The notes under the pieces: generated by a model
The model's input: the letters and a program-made list of their open reading frames with translations, nothing else
What the model was told of the DNA's origin: nothing
Databases searched by the model: none
Part shown: positions 3 through 33,775 of the stretch, piece by piece
Numbering within the stretch: the stretch's first letter is position 1
Layout: the number at the start of each line of letters is the position of its first letter
Translations under genes and position numbers: made by a program
Source: an uncultured archaeon
GTDB lineage: Archaea; Thermoproteota; Nitrososphaeria; Nitrososphaerales; Gagatemarchaeaceae
Direction of reading: 5' to 3'
Length of the DNA: 64,000 nucleotides
NCBI GenBank assembly: GCA_963817525.1
Contig: CAWFOU010000001.1
Location: 576,001 to 640,000 of the forward strand

Positions 3-647
3 GGCAGGACGGCGGACATCGTTGCGTTCCTCGAGATGAAGGAGTCGAATCTCACCATCGACGAGCTCCTGGGGTCGGTAAGGGAGCTCGACTTTGTCCT
101 GGAGGCGAACGCCGCGAGCAAGGACAGGGTGGTCTTCGAGGAATTCCTCTTCCCTCTCATGGTGGACGAAGACGTCCGCGGCTTCCTAATGACGGAGGGT
201 GCGTGGATGTCGATAGCAACGAGGCTTGTCCTCACCTACGGGACGGGCGGGCTCGCCATCCTCCACGAGGCAGGCGTCGCCTGTGGGGAGGAGTACGCGA
301 AGCAGCTGCAGGCCAAGCTCGGCCTGAGGGCCAGCCCGGAGACCGCCGTCGAGAACCTCGAGGTGATGCTTAGGGCGACGGGGATGGGCGTGATCGAGCT
401 CAGTGCCACGCTCGACGGGTTCCTCGTCAAGGTGGAGCAGCCGGTGATCCAGGCCACCGAGACGAAGATCCACGACCACTTCCTCACGGGGGTGATCTCC
501 GGAGCGGCGGGGCGACTCTTCGCGACGAGGTATTCGGTCGGGGATGTCCGCTTCGAAGGGGACGAGCTGCGTTTCACTCTGGGGCGTAGGCACGCCGAGC
601 AGGTGGCGCCTGAGCCGCGGCTCCCAAAGGCAGAGAGCGCCAGGTAG
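3..647 (+). CDS. V4R-domain protein (probably ACT+V4R sensor), 5'-truncated by window edge
   Basis: Frame is open from position 3 upstream of the ATG at 36; FLFPL and ILHEAGVACG...LRATGMG...HFLTGVISGAAGRLF pattern typical of archaeal V4R domains. Confidence 0.65.
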   Translation, partial: GRTADIVAFLEMKESNLTIDELLGSVRELDFVLEANAASKDRVVFEEFLFPLMVDEDVRGFLMTEGAWMSIATRLVLTYGTGGLAILHEAGVACGEEYAKQLQAKLGLRASPETAVENLEVMLRATGMGVIELSATLDGFLVKVEQPVIQATETKIHDHFLTGVISGAAGRLFATRYSVGDVRFEGDELRFTLGRRHAEQVAPEPRLPKAESAR

Positions 648-660
648 AGAAGCCGCCGGC

Positions 661-1194
661 TCAGTTCTGCTTCTTCGTCTGAAGTCCGCTAGCGTCGAAG
701 GTGAGGTGGCCCGAGTACAGGTTCTTGACCAGGTTCATCATCTTCTCGTCGTGTGCCCTTGAGAGCACCAGGAAGATCGAGGTGACGTCCCCGTGGCTGA
801 GGATCTCGTTCATCTGCCTGAGGAACTTGTAGCTGTCCTGCAATCCGCGCTCGAGTATGAGCGAGGATATGTTGTCGAAGACGACGGCCTTCGGCTGGTC
901 CGGGTCCGTGGTGACCGCCTCGTCCATGACGTTGAGGAGCACCGAATAGTCGGATCGAGGGACCATGACCTCGTTCGAGCCCGCGCTCGGCTTTGGATAT
1001 GAGCTCTCGGACAGGATGAAGAATCGGATGCCCGGCACGTCCTTCAGAAGGAGATGGACGGGGCTCCCCTTCGAGGTGAACGCGAACAGGCGCCGCCCGC
1101 TCGCGGCCATCGCCAGTGCGAACTCCTTGACGGCGCGCTCGTAGTTTACAGACGGGTCGGCTTCGAGCAGCATCGTCCCCTTGTAGTTGGGCAC
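661..1194 (-). CDS. DUF835-like inactive KaiC/RecA-fold protein
   Basis: AVVFDNISSLILERG..SYKFL and SIFLVL..AHDEK..NLVKNLY motifs; no Walker A; TATA-like TTAATAA about 25-30 nt upstream. Confidence 0.6.
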   Translation of the reverse strand: MPNYKGTMLLEADPSVNYERAVKEFALAMAASGRRLFAFTSKGSPVHLLLKDVPGIRFFILSESSYPKPSAGSNEVMVPRSDYSVLLNVMDEAVTTDPDQPKAVVFDNISSLILERGLQDSYKFLRQMNEILSHGDVTSIFLVLSRAHDEKMMNLVKNLYSGHLTFDASGLQTKKQN

Positions 1195-1467
1195 CGGATA
1201 TCTCCCTGTCGGCCCTCATTATTAACCGAGGCTGTCGAGAATCGACTTCCATCTCCCGATTCGGAGGCCGGGCGGACCCCTGTGCCGGGCAGCCGCCGCG
1301 TCCCGAGCCCCAAGCGCGGGTTGGCGTCCAATCCGCCTGGTGCCGGCAAACACGACAACAGAGAGTTTGAAGTTCTTGCAGCTCCCAGGGGAGGTAGAGC
1401 CCTCCGATTGTTTCTGATTTAGTAACGTGGTCCTGCATAGTGCGGTAATATCCTTCGTATCGCCAAC

Positions 1468-1716
1468 ATGGCGATGAACAGCCTACTCCTGTACCGACTC
1501 GTCAAGGTCGTCCCCTTCGCAACGGCGGCCTTCTCCATTATCCTGATGTCGCACGGCGTCTTCGGAGTTCACGGGGTGCACGTTTCCGGAGACCCGGGAG
1601 GACCCGGAGCCCCGAACACCCACATGGGAATCAACGGGGATCCAGGTGGACCCGGCGCGCCCAACCTTCGCATGACGACAAGTGGGGATCCTGGCGGACC
1701 CGGAGCCCCTAACTAG
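1468..1716 (+). CDS. Putative secreted peptide precursor with 3 x GDPGGPGAPN core repeats
   Basis: N-terminal basic plus hydrophobic segment; three identical decapeptides at 16-aa period encoded with different synonymous codons; start may be the ATG at 1474. Confidence 0.8.
   Translation: MAMNSLLLYRLVKVVPFATAAFSIILMSHGVFGVHGVHVSGDPGGPGAPNTHMGINGDPGGPGAPNLRMTTSGDPGGPGAPN
1588..1713 (+). repeat. Three 30-nt coding repeats (1588-1617, 1636-1665, 1684-1713), 48-nt period
   Basis: GGAGACCCGGGAGGACCCGGAGCCCCGAAC / GGGGATCCAGGTGGACCCGGCGCGCCCAAC / GGGGATCCTGGCGGACCCGGAGCCCCTAAC. Confidence 0.95.
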
Positions 1717-1720
1717 GGCT

Positions 1721-2812
1721 CTATCTCTTTATTTTCATCTTCTGGGGCAGGACGGCCTCCAGGGCCGCCTGTCTTTCGAAGAACCAGCCTCTCTTGCTGT
1801 CGAAGTTCTCGTAGGGTATCGTGTACCAGAACGTGGTCGAAAGGTCGACCGTCCACGTCTTCCAGTCGTCGACGATGTCCTTCAGGCGCGAGTCGAGGAA
1901 GCGGACCGACTCCATGAAGTAGTCCGCCGGAAGAGCCGAGTGGACCTGGTAGTACCCGTCGCTCCGGCCTCCCTCGAACCAGGTGAAGGGGAAATTGTTG
2001 AAGAGAAGCCTGAGCTTTGCGAGGGCTGCCCTTGAGACTCCGCTGAACTCGTAGATGAGACCTGCCGCCTTTGTGAACTCTTTGGGGGTCACAGACGTCC
2101 AGTTGACGTAGTTCGAGCGCACCACGTCGGAGACATGCTTCCTATAGTGCCATCGGACCGTCCTCTCGTTCAGCCTGAGCTTGCGGGCGATCTCCGCGAT
2201 GTTGCGCCACGAGTCCAGCTCGAGCTCCTTTATTATGAGCAGGTCGGTGACGTCAAAGTCCGTCGCCGTCGAGGGCTCCTCCGTCTTGACCGCGCTCGGC
2301 GGAGGCTCGCTGAGCTTCTCGACCTTCGCCCACTCGACCGTCCATTCTCCCGAGCCAAAGTCGTAGTACCTGCTGTTGAGCTCGGGGTTGCGCGACCAGA
2401 CGAGCCGCTGCGTGGTGTATTCGACCAGGATCTTCTTTTTCACGAGGTCGTCTAGGAATTCGAGGAATTGGTCGACGAGCGAGACTGGGACCGCGAAGAA
2501 GGCGAGCTGCCGGCGCTCGACCGCGGCCTTGCACCAGTAGGTGAGGAAGGCGTTGGAGGAAAGGCCCGTTCGGATGGCCGACTCCGAGGCCTCCGCCTCG
2601 CGTGTGAGCTTCATCGACACGAAGTAGCGTTCGAGCCCGAGTGCCGCGTGGTTGAGCGGGGTCCGTACGTTGAGGCCCATGTTCGGGAACCTCTTCTTCA
2701 TGGTGTAGCGTATGGTCTCGGTGGGCATCCCAGTCATGCGGGAGAGGAGGGAGACGTTCTGGATCCCCACGCGGTTTATCGCCTCTATGAGCTTGGTTAG
2801 GTCGGACGGCAT
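1721..2812 (-). CDS. Tandem (double) Lrp/AsnC-like HTH transcriptional regulator
   Basis: Two HTH modules (NVSLLSRMTGMPTETIRY; DVTDLLIIKELELDSWRNIAEIARKLRLNERTVRWH), each followed by a RAM-like region; paralog of 30945-32108. Confidence 0.8.
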   Translation of the reverse strand: MPSDLTKLIEAINRVGIQNVSLLSRMTGMPTETIRYTMKKRFPNMGLNVRTPLNHAALGLERYFVSMKLTREAEASESAIRTGLSSNAFLTYWCKAAVERRQLAFFAVPVSLVDQFLEFLDDLVKKKILVEYTTQRLVWSRNPELNSRYYDFGSGEWTVEWAKVEKLSEPPPSAVKTEEPSTATDFDVTDLLIIKELELDSWRNIAEIARKLRLNERTVRWHYRKHVSDVVRSNYVNWTSVTPKEFTKAAGLIYEFSGVSRAALAKLRLLFNNFPFTWFEGGRSDGYYQVHSALPADYFMESVRFLDSRLKDIVDDWKTWTVDLSTTFWYTIPYENFDSKRGWFFERQAALEAVLPQKMKIKR

Positions 2813-2836
2813 CTAGATCACTTGTGGTCTAATTAC

Positions 2837-2845
2837 CTATATAAT
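2837..2845 (-). promoter_or_regulatory. TATA box of regulator 1
   Basis: ATTATATAG on the minus strand about 25-33 nt upstream of the ATG at 2812. Confidence 0.6.
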
Positions 2846-3269
2846 ATCTGCGGGTTCGTGAAAAGGTGGCGGCCTAGTCCCCGTAGAAGGCAGATTTTTC
2901 ATTCTTCTAGTCGCATACGTGTTATTCTATTGAAATATGAATATTGTCTACATTCGACATGAGAATTGTGGCCATTTCTTGATGCTTGAGCCAACTCCCT
3001 CAGTTTGTCGGAAGAGTGGCTGCCCATGGCTCAGTAGTAGGGCCAATGGCCGGCCTTAGTATCCGGAGTCTAGATTCAGGTTCCACATGAAAGAGCCGCG
3101 AATTACTTTATGCATTTGCTGGCACGACTTAAATTCCTAAAGCAATAATGGACGGATGTAGGGCGGATTCGGTGTCAGAGAAAGTGATCTCGGTTTCAAG
3201 GGAGAACGTGAACCTCAGGCTCGTTATCTCCTTCGAGGACGAAAAAACCCCGGCCAAGAGCTTATCGCG

Positions 3270-3319
3270 ATAAGGGCGGATTCTTCCACTTCATAAGGGC
3301 GGATTCTTCCACTTCATAA
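3270..3319. repeat. Perfect 23-bp tandem duplication ATAAGGGCGGATTCTTCCACTTC x2 plus ATAA
   Basis: Read directly; the AGGGCGGATTC core also occurs at 3160-3170. Confidence 0.9.
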
Positions 3320-3442
3320 CCCATTTCAGCCCGTCGGAAATGCCGACCGCAGACTCCAGCCGCGAACGTGGCGACACGGAGCTGTTGCTCGGAAGAACGA
3401 GGGCTGGCCTGGTCAAGAGACGGAAATCACGGAGGACACCTG

Positions 3443-3979
3443 TCACGGATTGTCATGCGAATCCAATGCCGCGGATGCTATCAACTTGATAAGCTCGGAA
3501 GGGCTTCTTTCTTGGATAGGTTCTTTGTCGAACTCCGCAGTCGCACCGAACTCTCGCTTGATTTCCCTCGTCAGCATGTACTCGAAGACCTTGACCCCAG
3601 CCTCCCCGTAGATGGACTTTAGTCCCTCGATGAACTCATCGGGTTTGTTCGCGATGTCATCCCGTTCAAGATTGCGGGTCACATACAGGTTCCAGAAAAT
3701 GATCTCCTGCGTCTGAGAGCCAGCGCCAATGGCATGAAAGGCTCGGCTGACGCAATCCTTGATCCTGGCCGCGAAGGCAGCCTGTCGCTGTGAGTAGTTG
3801 AAGGCGGCCACCTGGTTGGCATGATAGAGCCCAGCGTTTTTAGGCCTTTGCTCGTCAATCGAGACAGTTGCCGTTTCTTTGATTCGGAGGTACATCGCGT
3901 CATGAATATGCCAAATCGACTGATATCGACATTCTTGCCGTATTCCAGAAGTTCCGACGGAGGTAGAAGAGAACGGCAA
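3443..3979 (-). CDS. DUF3227-like archaeal signalling-associated protein (true start probably downstream)
   Basis: KPDEFIEGLKSIYGEAGVKVFEYMLTREI motif, similar to 23419-23775. Confidence 0.55.
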   Translation of the reverse strand: MPFSSTSVGTSGIRQECRYQSIWHIHDAMYLRIKETATVSIDEQRPKNAGLYHANQVAAFNYSQRQAAFAARIKDCVSRAFHAIGAGSQTQEIIFWNLYVTRNLERDDIANKPDEFIEGLKSIYGEAGVKVFEYMLTREIKREFGATAEFDKEPIQERSPSELIKLIASAALDSHDNP

Positions 3980-4622: not shown

Positions 4623-4988
4623 TTGATGAATCCGGTATCGGGGATTGAGATAGACCGCTACGTCCGAAAGTATCGGAGAGGGATGGTGAACTCTCTTCTA
4701 GAGTACCTGATTTTGAACCACCTCGAAAAGGAGCCCCTCTGCGGCTACGACATCATAAGACTCCTTCACGAAAGGTTCCACATTCTCTTGAGCCCTGGGC
4801 AGGTCTACCCGGTCATCGACTACATGGCGGCTCAAGGCTTGATCTGCAAGGAGAAGCGCGGCAGGATGGTGATGCTCGCCCTCACCCACCTGGGATCTTC
4901 TCTCTTGCGGGCATGGAAAGAGGAATTCCAGAACATCAAAATTCAGGTGGACAACCTGGCCGCGGAGGAGCTCCACGCTGTATCTTGA
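4623..4988 (+). CDS. PadR family transcriptional regulator
   Basis: LILNHLEKEPLCGYDIIRLL..LSPGQVYPVI. Confidence 0.8.
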   Translation: MMNPVSGIEIDRYVRKYRRGMVNSLLEYLILNHLEKEPLCGYDIIRLLHERFHILLSPGQVYPVIDYMAAQGLICKEKRGRMVMLALTHLGSSLLRAWKEEFQNIKIQVDNLAAEELHAVS

Positions 4989-5102: not shown

Positions 5103-5441
5103 ATGTCGTCGAGTTGGGTAGTCCACAGGTTTCGACGGGCCTTTCTGCAAGAGAACCTGATGCTGATCACCCTCCGGCTTCTCAGGAGGTCGGAGATGAG
5201 CGAATGGGAGGCTTTGGATTCCATCTATTCTCGGTACAGGCTGACCCCCGACGCGAAGGAGTTCAAGAAGGTCCTGGACGTCTTGGTGAGCGGGGGGTAC
5301 GTGAGCTCCGAGCCGGCCGATGATGTCCGCGAGCTTCGGATAACGAGGACAGGTGTGAAGCTGCTCCACGCGCTCGAAGAGGAGTACCGGGCCATCGTCC
5401 TGAGCATCGAGACAGAAGCTCCCGGCCCAATAGCCCGCTAG
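5103..5441 (+). CDS. PadR-like winged-helix protein
   Basis: wHTH wing motif LRITRTGVKLL; TATA-like GTATAA upstream. Confidence 0.6.
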   Translation: MSSSWVVHRFRRAFLQENLMLITLRLLRRSEMSEWEALDSIYSRYRLTPDAKEFKKVLDVLVSGGYVSSEPADDVRELRITRTGVKLLHALEEEYRAIVLSIETEAPGPIAR

Positions 5442-29721: not shown

Positions 29722-29927
29722 AGGCCTTACCTGTGTTGAAGTCACCTCGTTGATATAAAAGCTTGATGGACCTGTGCTCCTACCCGTGTAGAGGGAAAAC
29801 GCGCGACAAATGCATCTTGGAGGGGCGTTGTTTTCCACAAAAGCTAAATAGCTGTAAAAGGCTTGCAACTTAAGCTATATAGCTTCCGGTGTATTGCTTG
29901 TCATCTGAAAGAGATTTCTCGAGACTG

Positions 29928-30836
29928 ATGAAGTTGCAACGGGCGCTGGACAAGTGCCCAAGATGCGGAAAGGGGCCTATGGTCGTCGACAACGCAGGCG
30001 GCGAGCTAGTGTGCAGCAGCTGCGGCTTTGTGGTCAAGGAGAAGATCGAAGAGACGGGCCCCGAATGGAGGGCGTTCTCGAAGGATGAGAAGGACGACAG
30101 ATCGAGGGGCGGGATTCCCACCTCTATCGCCATGCACGACATGGGGCTGGCCACGGTCATAGGTTCCGTAAACAAAGACGCTTCTGGAAAGTCGCTGTCA
30201 GGGTCGATGAAAGCCACCGTCGATCGCCTCAGGACCTGGGACAGCAGGAGCCAGGTCCACGAGCCGATGGACAGGAACCTTAGGCAGGCTTTCAGCGAGC
30301 TCGACAGGCTCTCCGACAAGCTCTCGGTCTCCGACGCAGTGGTGGAGAAGGCTGCTTACATCTACAGGAAGGCGCTCGAGCGGGGGCTGGTGAGGGGAAG
30401 GTCGATCTCGGCGATCATCGCCGCCTCTCTTTACGCTGCCTGCAGGGACAGGGAGACACCGAGGACGCTAAAGGACCTCGCGGTGGTGTCCAACGTGAAG
30501 AAGAAGGACATCGCAAGGTGCTACAGGCTCCTCCTGAAGGAGATGGACATCAAGATGCCCGTGGTCGACCCGACAAAGTGCGTCTCGAGGATCGCCTCCA
30601 GGGCGCAGCTGTCGGAGAGAACCAAGAGGAGGGCGTTAGAGATACTCAAGAAGGCAGAGGAGGCGAGGATATCTGCGGGAAAGGACCCTATGGGCCTGGC
30701 CGCAGCGGCTCTTTACGTGTCTTGCACGCTCGAGGGCGAGGACAAGACTCAGAGGGACGTCGCGGAGGCAGCCGGGGTGACCGAGGTCACCATCAGGAAT
30801 AGGTACAAGGGCCTCCGGTCGGCGCTAGGGATCTAA
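29928..30836 (+). CDS. tfb: Transcription initiation factor IIB (TFB)
   Basis: CPRC..CSSCG zinc ribbon, GPEWRAF, HDMGLAT and GVTEVTIRNRY motifs; start could also be GTG 29889. Confidence 0.95.
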   Translation: MKLQRALDKCPRCGKGPMVVDNAGGELVCSSCGFVVKEKIEETGPEWRAFSKDEKDDRSRGGIPTSIAMHDMGLATVIGSVNKDASGKSLSGSMKATVDRLRTWDSRSQVHEPMDRNLRQAFSELDRLSDKLSVSDAVVEKAAYIYRKALERGLVRGRSISAIIAASLYAACRDRETPRTLKDLAVVSNVKKKDIARCYRLLLKEMDIKMPVVDPTKCVSRIASRAQLSERTKRRALEILKKAEEARISAGKDPMGLAAAALYVSCTLEGEDKTQRDVAEAAGVTEVTIRNRYKGLRSALGI

Positions 30837-32122: not shown

Positions 32123-32239
32123 CTAGCCTACTCTTCCGGCAATCTCTAGGGCGCCCACGTGCATTCCGAACGCCGATAGGGCCACAGACGCGAGAGAGAC
32201 AGCCGCGAGGCCGTACCTGACCTTCTGATCAATTTCCAT
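32123..32239 (-). CDS. 38-aa putative secreted peptide precursor MEIDQKVRYGLAAVSLASVALSAFGMHVGALEIAGRVG
   Basis: Hand-translated; TTTATAAA 24-31 nt upstream of the ATG; signal-like hydrophobic core; FGMHV resembles FGVHGVHV of peptide 1; convergent with the regulator. Confidence 0.7.
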   Translation of the reverse strand: MEIDQKVRYGLAAVSLASVALSAFGMHVGALEIAGRVG

Positions 32240-32260: not shown

Positions 32261-32316
32261 GATTTATAAATCTGCGCTTTGCATGATGAAACCGAGATTT
32301 CGCCCATGCGAAATCT
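32261..32316 (-). promoter_or_regulatory. TATA box (palindromic GATTTATAAATC) plus upstream inverted repeat AGATTTCGC-N4-GCGAAATCT
   Basis: Read directly at 32261-32272 and 32295-32316. Confidence 0.6.
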
Positions 32317-32405
32317 AAATCCCGCTTTGAAAGCCTGCTAGAGGAGGCACGGGCCTTCTCAGGAGGGCCTGTGCGGATTCTAACTACGAATGAGCGGCGG
32401 AAGGC

Positions 32406-33539
32406 CTACTTCCTGCCGCTCGAGAAGCGCTTTACCAGCTCGTTCGCGACGATCAATGTCGAGGGGACGCCCAGCAGGAAGACGATGTCCAACGTGGGGA
32501 CGACGTCGAGGAAGCTGCCCGTGCCAGACGTGAAGGGAATCCCATACAGGCCCTGGGCAAGGAACGAGAATACGCTCCCGACGTAGTTTATGGACCAGTG
32601 GAGCAGGACGTCAGCAAGAAATCCGTATTTGATGTAGAGGTAGCCCAGGGCCAGCCCCGCGAGGGCGGCCTCGCTGATCTTCCCAGGCCCCCATCCCGCA
32701 CCGGAGGCATAGTGGGCGTAGCCGAAGATGAAGGAGGAGATGAAGAGGAAGGCGTAGACCACAGGCCGGATGGCTCTCACCTTCAGAGAATCGGAGGAGG
32801 ACTCTGGGAACAGGGACGGCGTGGCGTCCTTGAAAGAGTGCACCGTGATGATGACCCCTTCCTCCTCCTCGACGTCCCACACAGAGGACGGCCGCCAGAG
32901 TGCTCTCGCCGCCTTCACGGGAGAGAAGTCCCTGAACATGATCAGCGATAGGACGAGGACGGGTATCCCTATCATTATGACCCTGAAGGTTGTCTCCTCC
33001 GTCAGGGGGGCGAGGGTGTAGTTCATCAGGAGAAAGAAGGGGTCGCCCGTCAGAGACCCCGTCGAGACGCCCGCGTCCGTCTGGAAGGTGTCCACTAGGA
33101 CGGTGACGAGGCTGGTCGCCCCCAGAAGGACCAGGGTGGCGGACAGACTGTTCGTGAAGAGGGCGCTGTATCCCTTCGAGATCGAGGAGCGGAGCGCCTT
33201 GAGGAGCCCCGCACCCTGGGACGCGGCCAGCAGGAGGAATCCAAAGTAGATCGCCGAGACGACGACAAAGAGCTCGCCGAAGTTCCCTGCCACGGGGACC
33301 TGGAGCGTCGCGAACTCAAAGTCGTAGTTTATCCCCAGGACGGGCGTCGAGGCCGTGTAGTTGTTGGAGAGGTGGGTCCCGAAGACGGTATAGAGCCCGG
33401 CAGGGAACGAGAGGAGCATCATCGCCACGGTGAAGATGATTACCGCGACGAAGAAGAAGAGCCAGTTGGTCTTGGGGGAGGAGAGGGCGCCGCTCGCCTC
33501 GGTCGGCGGCTGCTCGAGAGCTCTGGCCCTGGGAGACAA
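32406..33539 (-). CDS. CPBP (CAAX/Abi) family intramembrane glutamic endopeptidase
   Basis: PLTEETTFR (EExxxR), FGYAH and HWSIN motifs; start taken at TTG 33539. Confidence 0.88.
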   Translation of the reverse strand: MSPRARALEQPPTEASGALSSPKTNWLFFFVAVIIFTVAMMLLSFPAGLYTVFGTHLSNNYTASTPVLGINYDFEFATLQVPVAGNFGELFVVVSAIYFGFLLLAASQGAGLLKALRSSISKGYSALFTNSLSATLVLLGATSLVTVLVDTFQTDAGVSTGSLTGDPFFLLMNYTLAPLTEETTFRVIMIGIPVLVLSLIMFRDFSPVKAARALWRPSSVWDVEEEEGVIITVHSFKDATPSLFPESSSDSLKVRAIRPVVYAFLFISSFIFGYAHYASGAGWGPGKISEAALAGLALGYLYIKYGFLADVLLHWSINYVGSVFSFLAQGLYGIPFTSGTGSFLDVVPTLDIVFLLGVPSTLIVANELVKRFSSGRK

Positions 33540-33544
33540 GTCGG

Positions 33545-33775
33545 CTACGGGTCTCGGCTCTCGGTGCGCTGCTCTTCCTTCTTGGCGTTCGCCGCTTCGT
33601 CCTCGCTCCTCCGGTCCTCGAGGTAGACGTAGCCCTTGTACCCGCACTTTTTGCAGTAATAGTCCTGGGGGACCAGCCAGCCGCCGAGCTCGCTTCCCTT
33701 CTCCAGGGGCGAGAGGCAGTTGACGCAGTACTTTATGACCGGCTTGCTAGGGTTCCTCCTCACGAGGCGGGGCAT
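33545..33775 (-). CDS. Small zinc-ribbon protein
   Basis: CVNC...YYCKKCGYKG; ATG at 33775. Confidence 0.7.
   Translation of the reverse strand: MPRLVRRNPSKPVIKYCVNCLSPLEKGSELGGWLVPQDYYCKKCGYKGYVYLEDRRSEDEAANAKKEEQRTESRDP

Follow-up and report, generated by a model that had tools for sequence, protein, structure and literature searches.

Organization of the locus

The stretch of DNA analyzed here (the window; 64,000 nucleotides (nt), corresponding to C1:576001-640000 of the host genome) stems from an uncultured archaeon of the Gagatemarchaeaceae, whose genome of 2.8 Mb is distributed over 15 contigs (61% G+C; 95% complete; 8.75% contaminated). Near the beginning of the window lies a pair of convergent genes, one encoding a predicted DNA-binding regulator (regulator 1) and the other a small peptide precursor (precursor 1), and it is this pair that we describe (Table 1). 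As the original prediction had it, the two genes are arranged tail to tail with 4 nt between their stop codons, and the precursor consists of a basic and hydrophobic leader, the sequence FGVHGVHV and three GDPGGPGAPN cores. Its proposed length of 82 amino acids needs a small correction. All six aligned orthologues begin at the second ATG (position 1474, MNS...), and a product of 80 amino acids is therefore more likely. The predicted second copy of this arrangement was found as well; here, a paralogous regulator (regulator 2) converges on a gene for a different, single-core peptide (precursor 2), and the stop codons are 14 nt apart. Neither Pfam nor NCBIfam yielded a family for precursor 1 or precursor 2, while both score in genome-wide scans with a hidden Markov model (HMM) of the peptide family described below (E 1.7e-18 and E 2.8e-9, respectively).

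The gene pair is a conserved two-gene module of the Nitrososphaeria and of some other Thermoproteota. We read it, with a probability of about 0.45, as a secreted peptide signal that would be sensed by its own cytoplasmic regulator, a system resembling those of the RRNPP type but built on an Lrp scaffold, with feedback on the peptide promoter. A more detailed form of this reading, which we advance tentatively, is that of an archaeal gene-encoded pheromone system in which a Sec-exported precursor would release one to several identical, Gly/Pro-rich decapeptides; these would act inside the cell on a dedicated receptor whose doubled Lrp/RAM fold would have been converted from the sensing of amino acids to that of peptides, with orthogonal channels and species-specific pherotypes.

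Table 1. Positions within the window of the two gene pairs, their control elements and adjacent genes (HTH, helix-turn-helix).
Feature	Position	Strand	Remarks
Peptide 1 promoter block, 41 nt	1411-1451	+	TTAGTAAC-N6-CTGCATA-N5-GTAATAT
Precursor 1, 80 amino acids	1474-1716	+	Stop codon TAG 1714-1716; 82 amino acids if read from ATG 1468
Leader, signal-peptide-like, 28 amino acids	1474-1557	+	n-region with basic residues (R, K), then a hydrophobic stretch of about 15 residues and S-H-G, the Gly of which is invariant in the family
Core copy 1, GDPGGPGAPN	1588-1617	+	
Core copy 2, GDPGGPGAPN	1636-1665	+	
Core copy 3, GDPGGPGAPN	1684-1713	+	Stop codon directly after
Hairpin and T-rich tract across both stop codons	1702-1732 (hairpin 1702-1722)	+	Possible terminator of the peptide mRNA
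Regulator 1, 363 amino acids	1721-2812	-	Stop codon 1721-1723
Domains of regulator 1 (residues)	HTH 1, about 6-44; alpha/beta, 47-141; HTH 2, about 188-227; alpha/beta, 235-329		From the AlphaFold2 model
Regulator 1 promoter	2832-2868	-	TATA-like ATTATATAGGTAAT, preceded by CCTTTTCAC; conserved among 16 loci
PadR-family gene	4623-4988	+	E 1.7e-8; divergent from regulator 1
112-amino-acid gene	5103-5441	+	No Pfam/NCBIfam family; divergent from regulator 1
Regulator 2, 387 amino acids	30945-32108	+	Paralog of regulator 1 (24% identity, 88/360; E 1e-27)
Precursor 2, 38 amino acids, single core	32123-32239	-	MEIDQKVRYG, hydrophobic stretch, G followed by MHVGALEIAGRVG
Peptide 2 promoter	32263-32320	-	TTTATAAA (32270-32263), preceded by CATGCAAAGCGCAGA and the distal TTAGATTTCGCATG
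Rce1-like/CPBP membrane protease	32406-33647	-	PF02517, E 4e-10; directly upstream of peptide 2, same strand

The peptide gene accompanies the regulator gene

We built an HMM from the convergent small open reading frames (ORFs) of homologous loci, iterated it, and thereby collected 71 unique peptides. In the whole host genome, this HMM matched just five of 60,012 frames (stop to stop, 25 or more amino acids long). Three matches adjoin intact regulator paralogs (C1:577441, C1:117796 and C1:608126). The fourth, on C12, adjoins a paralog too, with regulator and peptide both frameshifted, so that either joint decay of the pair or insertion/deletion errors on this contig are at hand; the fifth (C2:116-349) sits at a contig edge, beside a fragment that resembles the N-terminus of a regulator and not its 3' end. 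The small ORF is missing beside two other intact paralogs (C1:531970 and C7:521257).

We then inspected homologous loci from genomes and metagenomes (designated by L-numbers), counting a locus as testable when its regulator was unique, had an intact 3' end and was followed by at least 150 nt. Among the 28 testable regulators with at least 55% identity to regulator 1, 22 are accompanied by a peptide gene and three by a mini-ORF that encodes the core only; a remnant or nothing is found at the other three (L093, L103 and L118). The peptide gene is present at all 14 testable loci whose regulators are 40-55% identical to regulator 1. Overall, 39 of 42 testable loci at or above 40% identity keep it (three as the core-only mini-ORF), the corresponding figures being 8/22 at 27-40% identity and 7/43 below 27%. 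Orthologues of regulator 2 with identities down to about 35% occur in 27 of 41 genomes (E <= 1e-40), and a convergent peptide ORF was detected at 24 of the 29 testable loci of these 27 genomes. Regulator-2 loci that do not carry an intact peptide gene comprise one that is cut off (L177), one in which it is broken (L189) and four that have none (L188, L193, L194 and L195). The search for convergent small ORFs beside homologous regulators, proposed with the original prediction as a check, was thus positive for both copies. We conclude that the pairing of regulator and peptide genes is not a matter of chance.

Metagenome-assembled genomes (MAGs) with related loci are labelled Thaumarchaeota, Nitrososphaerales, Nitrososphaerota or Candidatus Gagatemarchaeum. 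Judged by these relatives, the host probably belongs to the Nitrososphaeria of group I.1c (Gagatemarchaeaceae-like), which do not oxidize ammonia. Further occurrences of the pair are in MAGs bearing the labels Brockarchaeota (L068, L071) and Geothermarchaeota (L061). For a FastTree phylogeny of 63 regulators, short or broken ORFs (five groups in all) had been removed beforehand; in this tree, clades with the peptide are interspersed among clades without it. Three loci scored as having no peptide by the HMM (L062, L063 and L064) contain convergent hydrophobic ORFs of 37-40 amino acids (with tails such as ...PIILEAVGGVVNLG and ...GDATGRIDLVL), and the share of paired regulators is therefore probably higher than our count.

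Different partners were seen at some other loci. In three MAGs of the Conexivisphaerales (L057, L058 and L060), the regulator is convergent with a conserved multi-pass membrane protein of 132-142 amino acids, whose stop codon is 10-22 nt from that of the regulator, and no mini-peptide is present. At L002 (C1:530470-534465), a peptide-less regulator paralog (ORF 1441-2595) is followed in the same direction, and with an overlap of 4 nt, by an ORF (2592-3458) for a UbiA-family prenyltransferase (PF01040, E 9.7e-16). The regulator clade formed by L002, L030, L032 and L033 may have a different function.

The cores of a precursor are kept identical

The three cores of precursor 1 differ from one another at 5-7 of 30 nt and at 0 of 10 residues. 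When 19 unique multi-core precursors from genomes and metagenomes were compared in this way, 39 pairs of copies yielded 221 nucleotide differences and 0 residue differences, while 28% of random single-base changes in the core codons would be synonymous. Units with at most one mismatch to the last core were counted as core copies; a unit with exactly one mismatch was not encountered. The six-residue spacers between the cores vary freely, save for a frequent His. Between species, all cores of a precursor vary in concert, and eight variants were seen (GDPGGPGAPN, GDPGGSGGPN, GDPGGNGGPN, GDPGGNTGPN, GDPIGNTGPN, GDPGGPGEPN, GDPGGPGGPH and GDPGGQGGPT), with differences at core positions 4, 6-8 and 10; such concerted change is what one would predict for a peptide that is read by a specific receptor. 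As far as can be judged from its sequence, the pattern is that of a polyprotein from which several copies of one short peptide of functionally important sequence would be released, and the substitutions between the cores confirm the small gene as real and, by all appearances, translated.

In a genome with 61% G+C, many spurious ORFs overlap real genes, and the small ORFs might accordingly be viewed as open frames that arose by chance at the 3' ends of real genes. The selection pattern of the cores (0 residue versus 221 nucleotide changes) refutes this explanation, which we consider virtually excluded. It is also contradicted by the specificity of the HMM in the genome-wide scan, by the promoter block that stands at a fixed distance from the peptide gene (see below), and by the occurrence of the family in databases. 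A profile of 31 peptides recovered 88 proteins at E <= 1e-3 (best E 2.4e-15) among 5.8 billion sequences; all 88 lack a Pfam domain and are named, if at all, hypothetical protein.

The region in which the two genes meet contains a hairpin and a T-rich tract (Table 1). Terminator-like sites were seen three times against 1.4 expected, a weak support for the hairpin as a terminator, and the T tract is the complement of the codons for the Lys-rich C-terminus of regulator 1.

Leader and anatomy of the peptide family

Members of the peptide family follow a common plan. Met is followed by 3-10 residues that are polar or basic (often K-[VI]-R-x-G), a hydrophobic stretch of 15-20 residues and an invariant Gly, after which there is usually [VLIM]-His and then a tail of 9-14 residues (e.g., PLDEIGGGTH, GDPIGPGAPT or LEIAGRVG). 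What had been proposed as an FGxH motif is therefore general with respect to the Gly behind the hydrophobic stretch and, for the most part, the [VLIM]-H; FGxH as such is only partly so. An n-region and an h-region are discernible in 31 of 31 aligned peptides, the invariant Gly occupying position -1, and the leader looks like a Sec signal peptide that would be cut after this Gly. The maximum Kyte-Doolittle window in the leader, determined for the near-identical L038 orthologue of precursor 1, is 2.4. In some members an A-x-A site stands directly before the core (e.g., ...PAFA followed by GDPIGSTPH). Class III (type IV pilin-like) signals are marked by [KR]-[GA] directly before the hydrophobic stretch. 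By eye, K-[IV]-R-x-G is longer than this motif, its basic residue and Gly being separated by one residue, and the regulator-1 clade (MNSLLLHRLVKAAPF) has no Gly at the motif position; the reading as a class III signal peptide was tentatively set aside.

Most clades have a single core, whereas precursors of the regulator-1 clade possess two or three identical copies. Two further precursors with repeated units were missed by the HMM: that of L059 (106 amino acids) has six PLGGPIGIPV-like units and that of L130 (85 amino acids) two GDPIDDDPNPEPE units. Multi-core precursors have thus arisen independently at least three times, namely in the regulator-1 clade, in L059 and in L130. In some peptides of the copy-2 clade (L170-L174), an additional H-L-[KRN]-x stands behind the Gly-His and ahead of the tail, as if part of a unit starting at the His had been duplicated.

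Two properties of the leader bear on the question of whether it is removed. First, the residue at position -3 before the invariant Gly is mostly A, T, G or S but in some peptides H, L, V, K or I, and the leader could therefore be an uncleaved membrane anchor. Second, among 24 peptides of the copy-2 clade the mean pairwise identity is 0.58 in the n-region, 0.47 in the hydrophobic region and 0.38 in the tail; by this alignment, such conservation of the n-region is unusual for a mere Sec signal. A leader that is better conserved than the tail is common in precursors of bacterial peptides with signalling or antimicrobial functions. Both properties, together with the positive charges on the N-terminal side of the hydrophobic stretch, are in keeping with a single-pass protein with its N-terminus inside and its tail outside the cell, which would hold the regulator at the membrane via the conserved cytoplasmic N-terminus (e.g., MxLDxKVRYG) until an outside cue acts on the tail. 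We think this quite unlikely: identical cores separated by freely varying spacers suggest the release of several copies, and a 15-amino-acid variant is retained in which the anchor and nearly all of the n-region are lost.

This variant is found on three metagenome contigs (L094, L095 and L097), the regulators of which share 69-70% identity with regulator 1. Each contig has an intact promoter block, while the gene behind it has only 15 codons, MNS[PF]DGDPGGPGGPN, and no signal sequence; the first three residues of the leader are joined almost directly to one core. Between L094 and L097, 5 of the 48 bases of the ORF differ, three of these within one codon, whereas the 21-nt interval between TATA element and ATG differs at many positions, and the mini-gene hence appears to be maintained. 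A leaderless core is not easily explained if the peptide acts outside the cell only. It fits either a reader in the cytoplasm or another export route, the latter by analogy with bacterial leaderless peptides.

The regulator has a predicted tandem Lrp/AsnC-like fold

AlphaFold2 provided a confident model of regulator 1 (predicted local distance difference test, pLDDT, 89.2; predicted template modelling score, pTM, 0.88). It comprises two consecutive modules, each consisting of a three-helix HTH and a beta-alpha-beta-beta-alpha-beta domain. About 25 single Lrp/AsnC regulators match the halves of the model in VIA-align (Z 6.6-8.0; 136-152 residues), covering residues of about 183-338 or, in the case of 4pcq and 2znz, residues 1-147. 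The two HTH and RAM-like modules of the original prediction are accordingly borne out by the fold, and weakly by sequence. PF13404 (AsnC-type HTH) matches residues 187-220 of regulator 1 with E 7.4e-5 and 22.9 bits, which is below the cut-off of 27 bits, and sequence models detect the second HTH only; PF13404 is above the cut-off in the paralog L002 (34.4 bits) and is precomputed for most of 112 homologues. By sequence, an AsnC-type HTH is thus recognizable in the regulator family and marginal in regulator 1. A profile of 45 homologues gave weak Lrp/AsnC matches among PDB sequences (E about 0.01; residues 181-325). The part of the prediction that did not hold at the sequence level is the RAM domain: PF01037 (AsnC_trans_reg) does not match regulator 1 at E <= 0.1, and none of its 17 matches in the host genome falls on the five regulator paralogs. 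The term RAM is therefore valid for regulator 1 as a description of the fold only. NCBIfam gave nothing for this protein, and Pfam gave sub-threshold HTH matches only.

In the third helix of both HTHs, residues are invariant across 62 family members (R35/Y36 and H222/H226), which suggests DNA binding by the regulator. The residues W161, W278, E280, G286, Y288, T331, Y334 and F345 are better kept in peptide-bearing clades, a difference that phylogeny confounds. A complex prediction with the regulator alignment and residues 29-80 of the precursor returned scores of 0.01 and 0.02 (mark 0.32) and is neutral with respect to binding. Among 1.84 billion proteins, 757 cluster representatives of the regulator family were matched at E <= 1e-3, of which 161 reach E <= 1e-30. 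The regulator family is present in 45 of 61 related genomes searched and in 35 of 36 genomes of the same taxonomic family, with at most 10 matches per genome. Homologues are named, if at all, hypothetical protein, ArsR family regulator or Lrp/AsnC family; archaeal clusters in the ESM Atlas are hypothetical protein or Lrp/AsnC family only, the recognition value of the query lying slightly below the mark.

The top structural match of the model is an enzyme, the siroheme decarboxylase NirDL (Foldseek E 1.2e-9; also first in VIA-align). Its structure 4ch7 superposes on residues 1-357 with Z 16.4 and a root-mean-square deviation of 4.5 A over 286 residues (14% identity), and 4czc with Z 15.8; ABM-type double-ferredoxin barrels (monooxygenases) and sulfur oxygenase reductases come next, with Z 9-10.5 on both alpha/beta domains together. 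PF17805 (AsnC_trans_reg2, siroheme decarboxylase) has no match in the host genome at E <= 1e-3, a threshold at which three archaeal control genomes do match. These data can be taken to suggest that the tandem Lrp-fold protein is an enzyme or a protein that recognizes peptides, and no regulator at all, and that it modifies the precursor before export and thereby gives rise to a product akin to ribosomally synthesized and post-translationally modified peptides. We judge this to be very improbable. Identity to NirDL is 12-14% with no match at the sequence level, and PF17805 is silent on regulator 1 at E <= 0.1. Moreover, NirDL is the only solved tandem Lrp fold among the matches listed, so that its top rank is expected from the architecture alone. 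There are up to 10 matches per genome, and the recognition-helix residues of both HTHs are invariant across the family; the genes are convergent instead of forming an operon; and the cores, devoid of Cys and poor in Ser/Thr, are atypical for such peptide chemistry.

Conserved promoter blocks

The 41-nt block in front of precursor 1 is almost invariant in seven orthologous loci whose flanks do not align, and a position weight matrix derived from it finds a single match in the 2.8-Mb genome. Its TATA-like element (1445-1451) ends 22 nt before the ATG at 1474. A generalized form, [TC]AGTAAC-N5-8-YTGMATA-N4-7-TAATA, precedes 34 of the 71 unique peptide genes, i.e., all but one of those in the regulator-1 superclade, and the distance from TAATA to the start codon is 22-23 nt in 31 of these 34. 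This spacing suggests that the peptide mRNA is leaderless or nearly so. The DNA just upstream of the TATA element, about 25 nt of which are constrained here, is a usual site for the binding of archaeal activators.

In copy 2, the TTTATAAA element of the peptide promoter ends 24 nt before the ATG, and a block of the form ...TTAGATTTNGCAT...CATGCAAAGCGCAGATTTATAAATC is conserved in L005 and L168-L174; a sister group has a 12-nt palindrome, AAGCATATGCTT, that abuts a TATA-like element. TGCAT/ATGCA is the most enriched 5-mer between -90 and -15, occurring in 39 of 69 regions against 8.1 in shuffled sequences. By clade, it was found in 24/33, 12/23 and 3/13 regions; the enrichment comes mainly from two clades, and since the sequences are related we take it as a lead only. 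We propose that the neighbouring regulator may bind these conserved promoter blocks. GTGGTC is apparently similar, by eye, between the peptide and regulator promoters. An operator shared by both promoters was considered and discarded, the 41-nt block being unique to the peptide side and the regulator promoter having a different conserved element. Rfam had no match in 1100-3100 of the window, promoter block included, and a sigma-70 scan found 0 sites, the expected result for an archaeon.

Neighbouring genes and transport

On the regulator side, the PadR gene and the 112-amino-acid gene (Table 1) are present in 15 of 15 regulator-1 superclade loci compared. The gap between PadR and regulator genes, about 1.8 kb in the window and about 100-600 nt in 14 other loci, contains a 178-amino-acid ORF (3443-3979, minus strand) with a weak match to NitrOD5 (Nitrosopumilus output domain 5; E 0.0039), which in view of this difference looks like an insertion. 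On the peptide side, a 177-amino-acid KaiC-like/DUF835/DUF7504 gene (661-1194, minus strand) recurs in several orthologous loci; in L038-L043 (L038:5500-7401), a 164-amino-acid gene without a family and a MASE3-like membrane protein gene are placed between the KaiC-like and peptide genes. Elsewhere, the genes upstream of the peptide gene vary (SpoIIM-like, NAD kinase-like, HerA-like ATPase, V4R/ACT, cupin, GvpL/F or no family), and the constant unit is therefore the two-gene pair. No haem-pathway gene was seen among those neighbours that were scanned (PadR, KaiC-like/DUF835, MASE3-like, CPBP protease and others). A TFIIB-like (TFB) gene with, by eye, a zinc ribbon and two cyclin-like repeats (29889-30836, plus strand) lies about 110 nt upstream of regulator 2.

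A gene for a CPBP protease is located directly upstream of peptide 2, and at the broken pair on C12 (C12:7000-8500; L006-L008) a homologue is found about 700 nt upstream of the peptide. Possibly, this protease is a processing enzyme for some pairs; it is not a constant partner. As regards import, the host genome encodes two SBP_bac_5 (Opp/Dpp-type) binding proteins, and multiple peptide and oligopeptide ATP-binding cassette (ABC) transporters are reported for the Gagatemarchaeaceae in an excerpt of PMC10640624. Uptake of a peptide would hence be feasible.

A proposed peptide-signalling circuit

Starting from the pairing and its conservation, the selection acting on the translated cores, the fold of the regulator and the promoter blocks, the following circuit can be envisaged. 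The core peptide would be the functional product and serve as a diffusible signal. Export of its precursor would be followed by cleavage behind the invariant Gly and, in multi-core precursors, by further cuts at the spacers, and a peptide of 10-14 residues would accumulate outside the cell. It would then be taken up by an oligopeptide ABC importer and bind to the alpha/beta (RAM-like) domains of its own regulator, which in response would change its binding at the block upstream of the TATA box of the peptide gene (auto-induction) and at other targets. Several pairs per genome with different peptides would constitute separate channels. The expansion of the regulator family into multiple paralogs, each with a peptide of its own, the concerted change of the cores and the promoter block all fit a cognate pair of signal and receptor.

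Several observations weigh against this proposal. The quorum-sensing-like interpretation offered originally has gained from the pairing, the fold, the reality of the small gene and its recurrence, but several regulator clades are without a peptide (the L002 type, L004, Conexivisphaerales, Bathyarchaeia and Caldarchaeales). Among the loci compared, the pair has no constant neighbour that would serve as exporter, protease or importer, and a CPBP protease homologue is near only three of these loci (copy 2, the C12 pair and L035). Core and regulator co-vary along the phylogeny, for which linkage alone could account; two decayed units (the first of L012 and the last of L014) fall outside the core count given above. 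The 41-nt block is present at the peptide promoter only and not at that of the regulator itself. To these are to be added the failure of PF01037, the enzyme as best structural match, the variable residue at position -3 and the well conserved n-region.

Some of these points lead to another explanation, in which the regulator would be a factor that merely controls an exported peptide and never senses it. The peptide would have an extracellular job of its own, for example as a component of the surface or matrix, in metal or proton buffering via His/Asp, or in antagonism. A promoter block and tight linkage would be just as much expected if a regulator is dedicated to its target gene, constant linkage to a gene for import or processing was not observed, and His recurs next to the Gly of the putative cleavage site. 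We nevertheless regard such an arrangement as rather unlikely. The 15-amino-acid core-only ORF is kept behind an intact promoter without an export signal, the species-specific, concerted change of the cores points to a specific reader, and a dedicated paralog for each peptide of 38-80 amino acids, several times per genome, would be costly for a structural product.

Relation to known systems and implications

Judged by analogy, the archaeal pair is probably closest in function to the group III Rgg/SHP systems of streptococci, in which shp is convergent with rgg and overlaps its end (excerpts of PMC13361665). According to the same excerpts, a cytoplasmic HTH regulator beside a tiny convergent pro-peptide gene at its 3' end, the occurrence of several paralogous pairs per genome and positive feedback of Rgg on the peptide promoter are the features in common (PMC13361665), the feedback being a proposal for the archaeal pair. 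The differences concern the parts. Rgg binds its peptide via a TPR-like repeat domain whereas the fold of the archaeal protein comprises two Lrp/AsnC modules; SHPs are hydrophobic peptides with PptAB as their exporter, whereas the archaeal core is rich in Gly, Pro and Asp and follows a Sec-like leader; and the hosts are Bacillota on the one hand and archaea on the other, peptide binding and import being only proposed for the latter. Pfam finds no TPR family in regulator 1, whose fold is Lrp-like throughout residues 1-357, and because it has no TPR domain we do not count the pair among the RRNPP systems, although it shares with them an adjacent small pro-peptide gene that is conserved with the receptor and whose leader suggests export.

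Rap-Phr systems of Bacillus phages offer a parallel to the multi-core precursors, since excerpts of PMC11343458 describe a propeptide with several putative mature pheromones and extracellular proteolysis, i.e., one secreted propeptide and several mature units. However, the Rap receptor is a TPR protein, and duplicated pheromones bind with varying affinities in the systems covered by these excerpts (PMC11343458), whereas the archaeal copies are identical. Leaderless communication peptides (SIP/RopB) are, as far as excerpts of PMC10518010 and PMC13361665 report, short, translated essentially in mature form without a secretion leader, and read by a cytoplasmic receptor. The MNS[PF]DGDPGGPGGPN variant resembles them; it is, however, a derived deletion within a leader-bearing family, and the fold of the receptor differs.

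With respect to the regulator, each half superposes on a whole monomer of Lrp/AsnC proteins (PH1519/FL11, ST1022 and E. coli Lrp) in its HTH and RAM fold. What sets it apart is that two modules are fused into a chain of about 365 residues, forming an intramolecular pseudo-dimer, and that PF01037 fails. Known ligands of Lrp/AsnC proteins are amino acids and not gene-encoded peptides; the PDB titles of the structural matches name complexes with L-Leu and L-Ile. NirDL and AhbA-AhbB share the tandem Lrp-like architecture with regulator 1 and provide the best structural match, but identity is 12-14%, the PF17805 signature is missing, and the archaeal family is a multi-paralog one.

The main texts of the literature searched, which was queried for archaeal peptide signalling, RRNPP systems in archaea and tandem Lrp proteins, contain no description of this module or of an archaeal gene-encoded peptide signal with a dedicated receptor; the word archaea is absent from the RRNPP_Detector paper, and no family model or functional name was found for regulator or peptide. 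To our knowledge, communication among archaea is known only via a few small molecules. The logic of the module is known from the Bacillota, while its parts and the domain of life are new.

If our reading is true, the module would provide the Archaea with their first example of cell-cell signalling by peptides, with a class of receptor unrelated to RRNPP proteins and two-component sensors. Confirmed binding would mean that the logic of peptide pheromones evolved independently on an Lrp scaffold, that the ligand range of Lrp/RAM proteins widens from amino acids to peptides, and that uncultured but abundant archaea of acid soils (group I.1c, Gagatemarchaeaceae-like) run several private channels. 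The module is easily amenable to testing, requiring a synthetic peptide of 10 residues, a soluble protein of 363 amino acids and a DNA site of 41 bp. Even if the regulator merely controls the peptide gene, exported peptides of 38-80 amino acids with conserved, repeated cores would represent a new and hitherto unannotated class in the Archaea.

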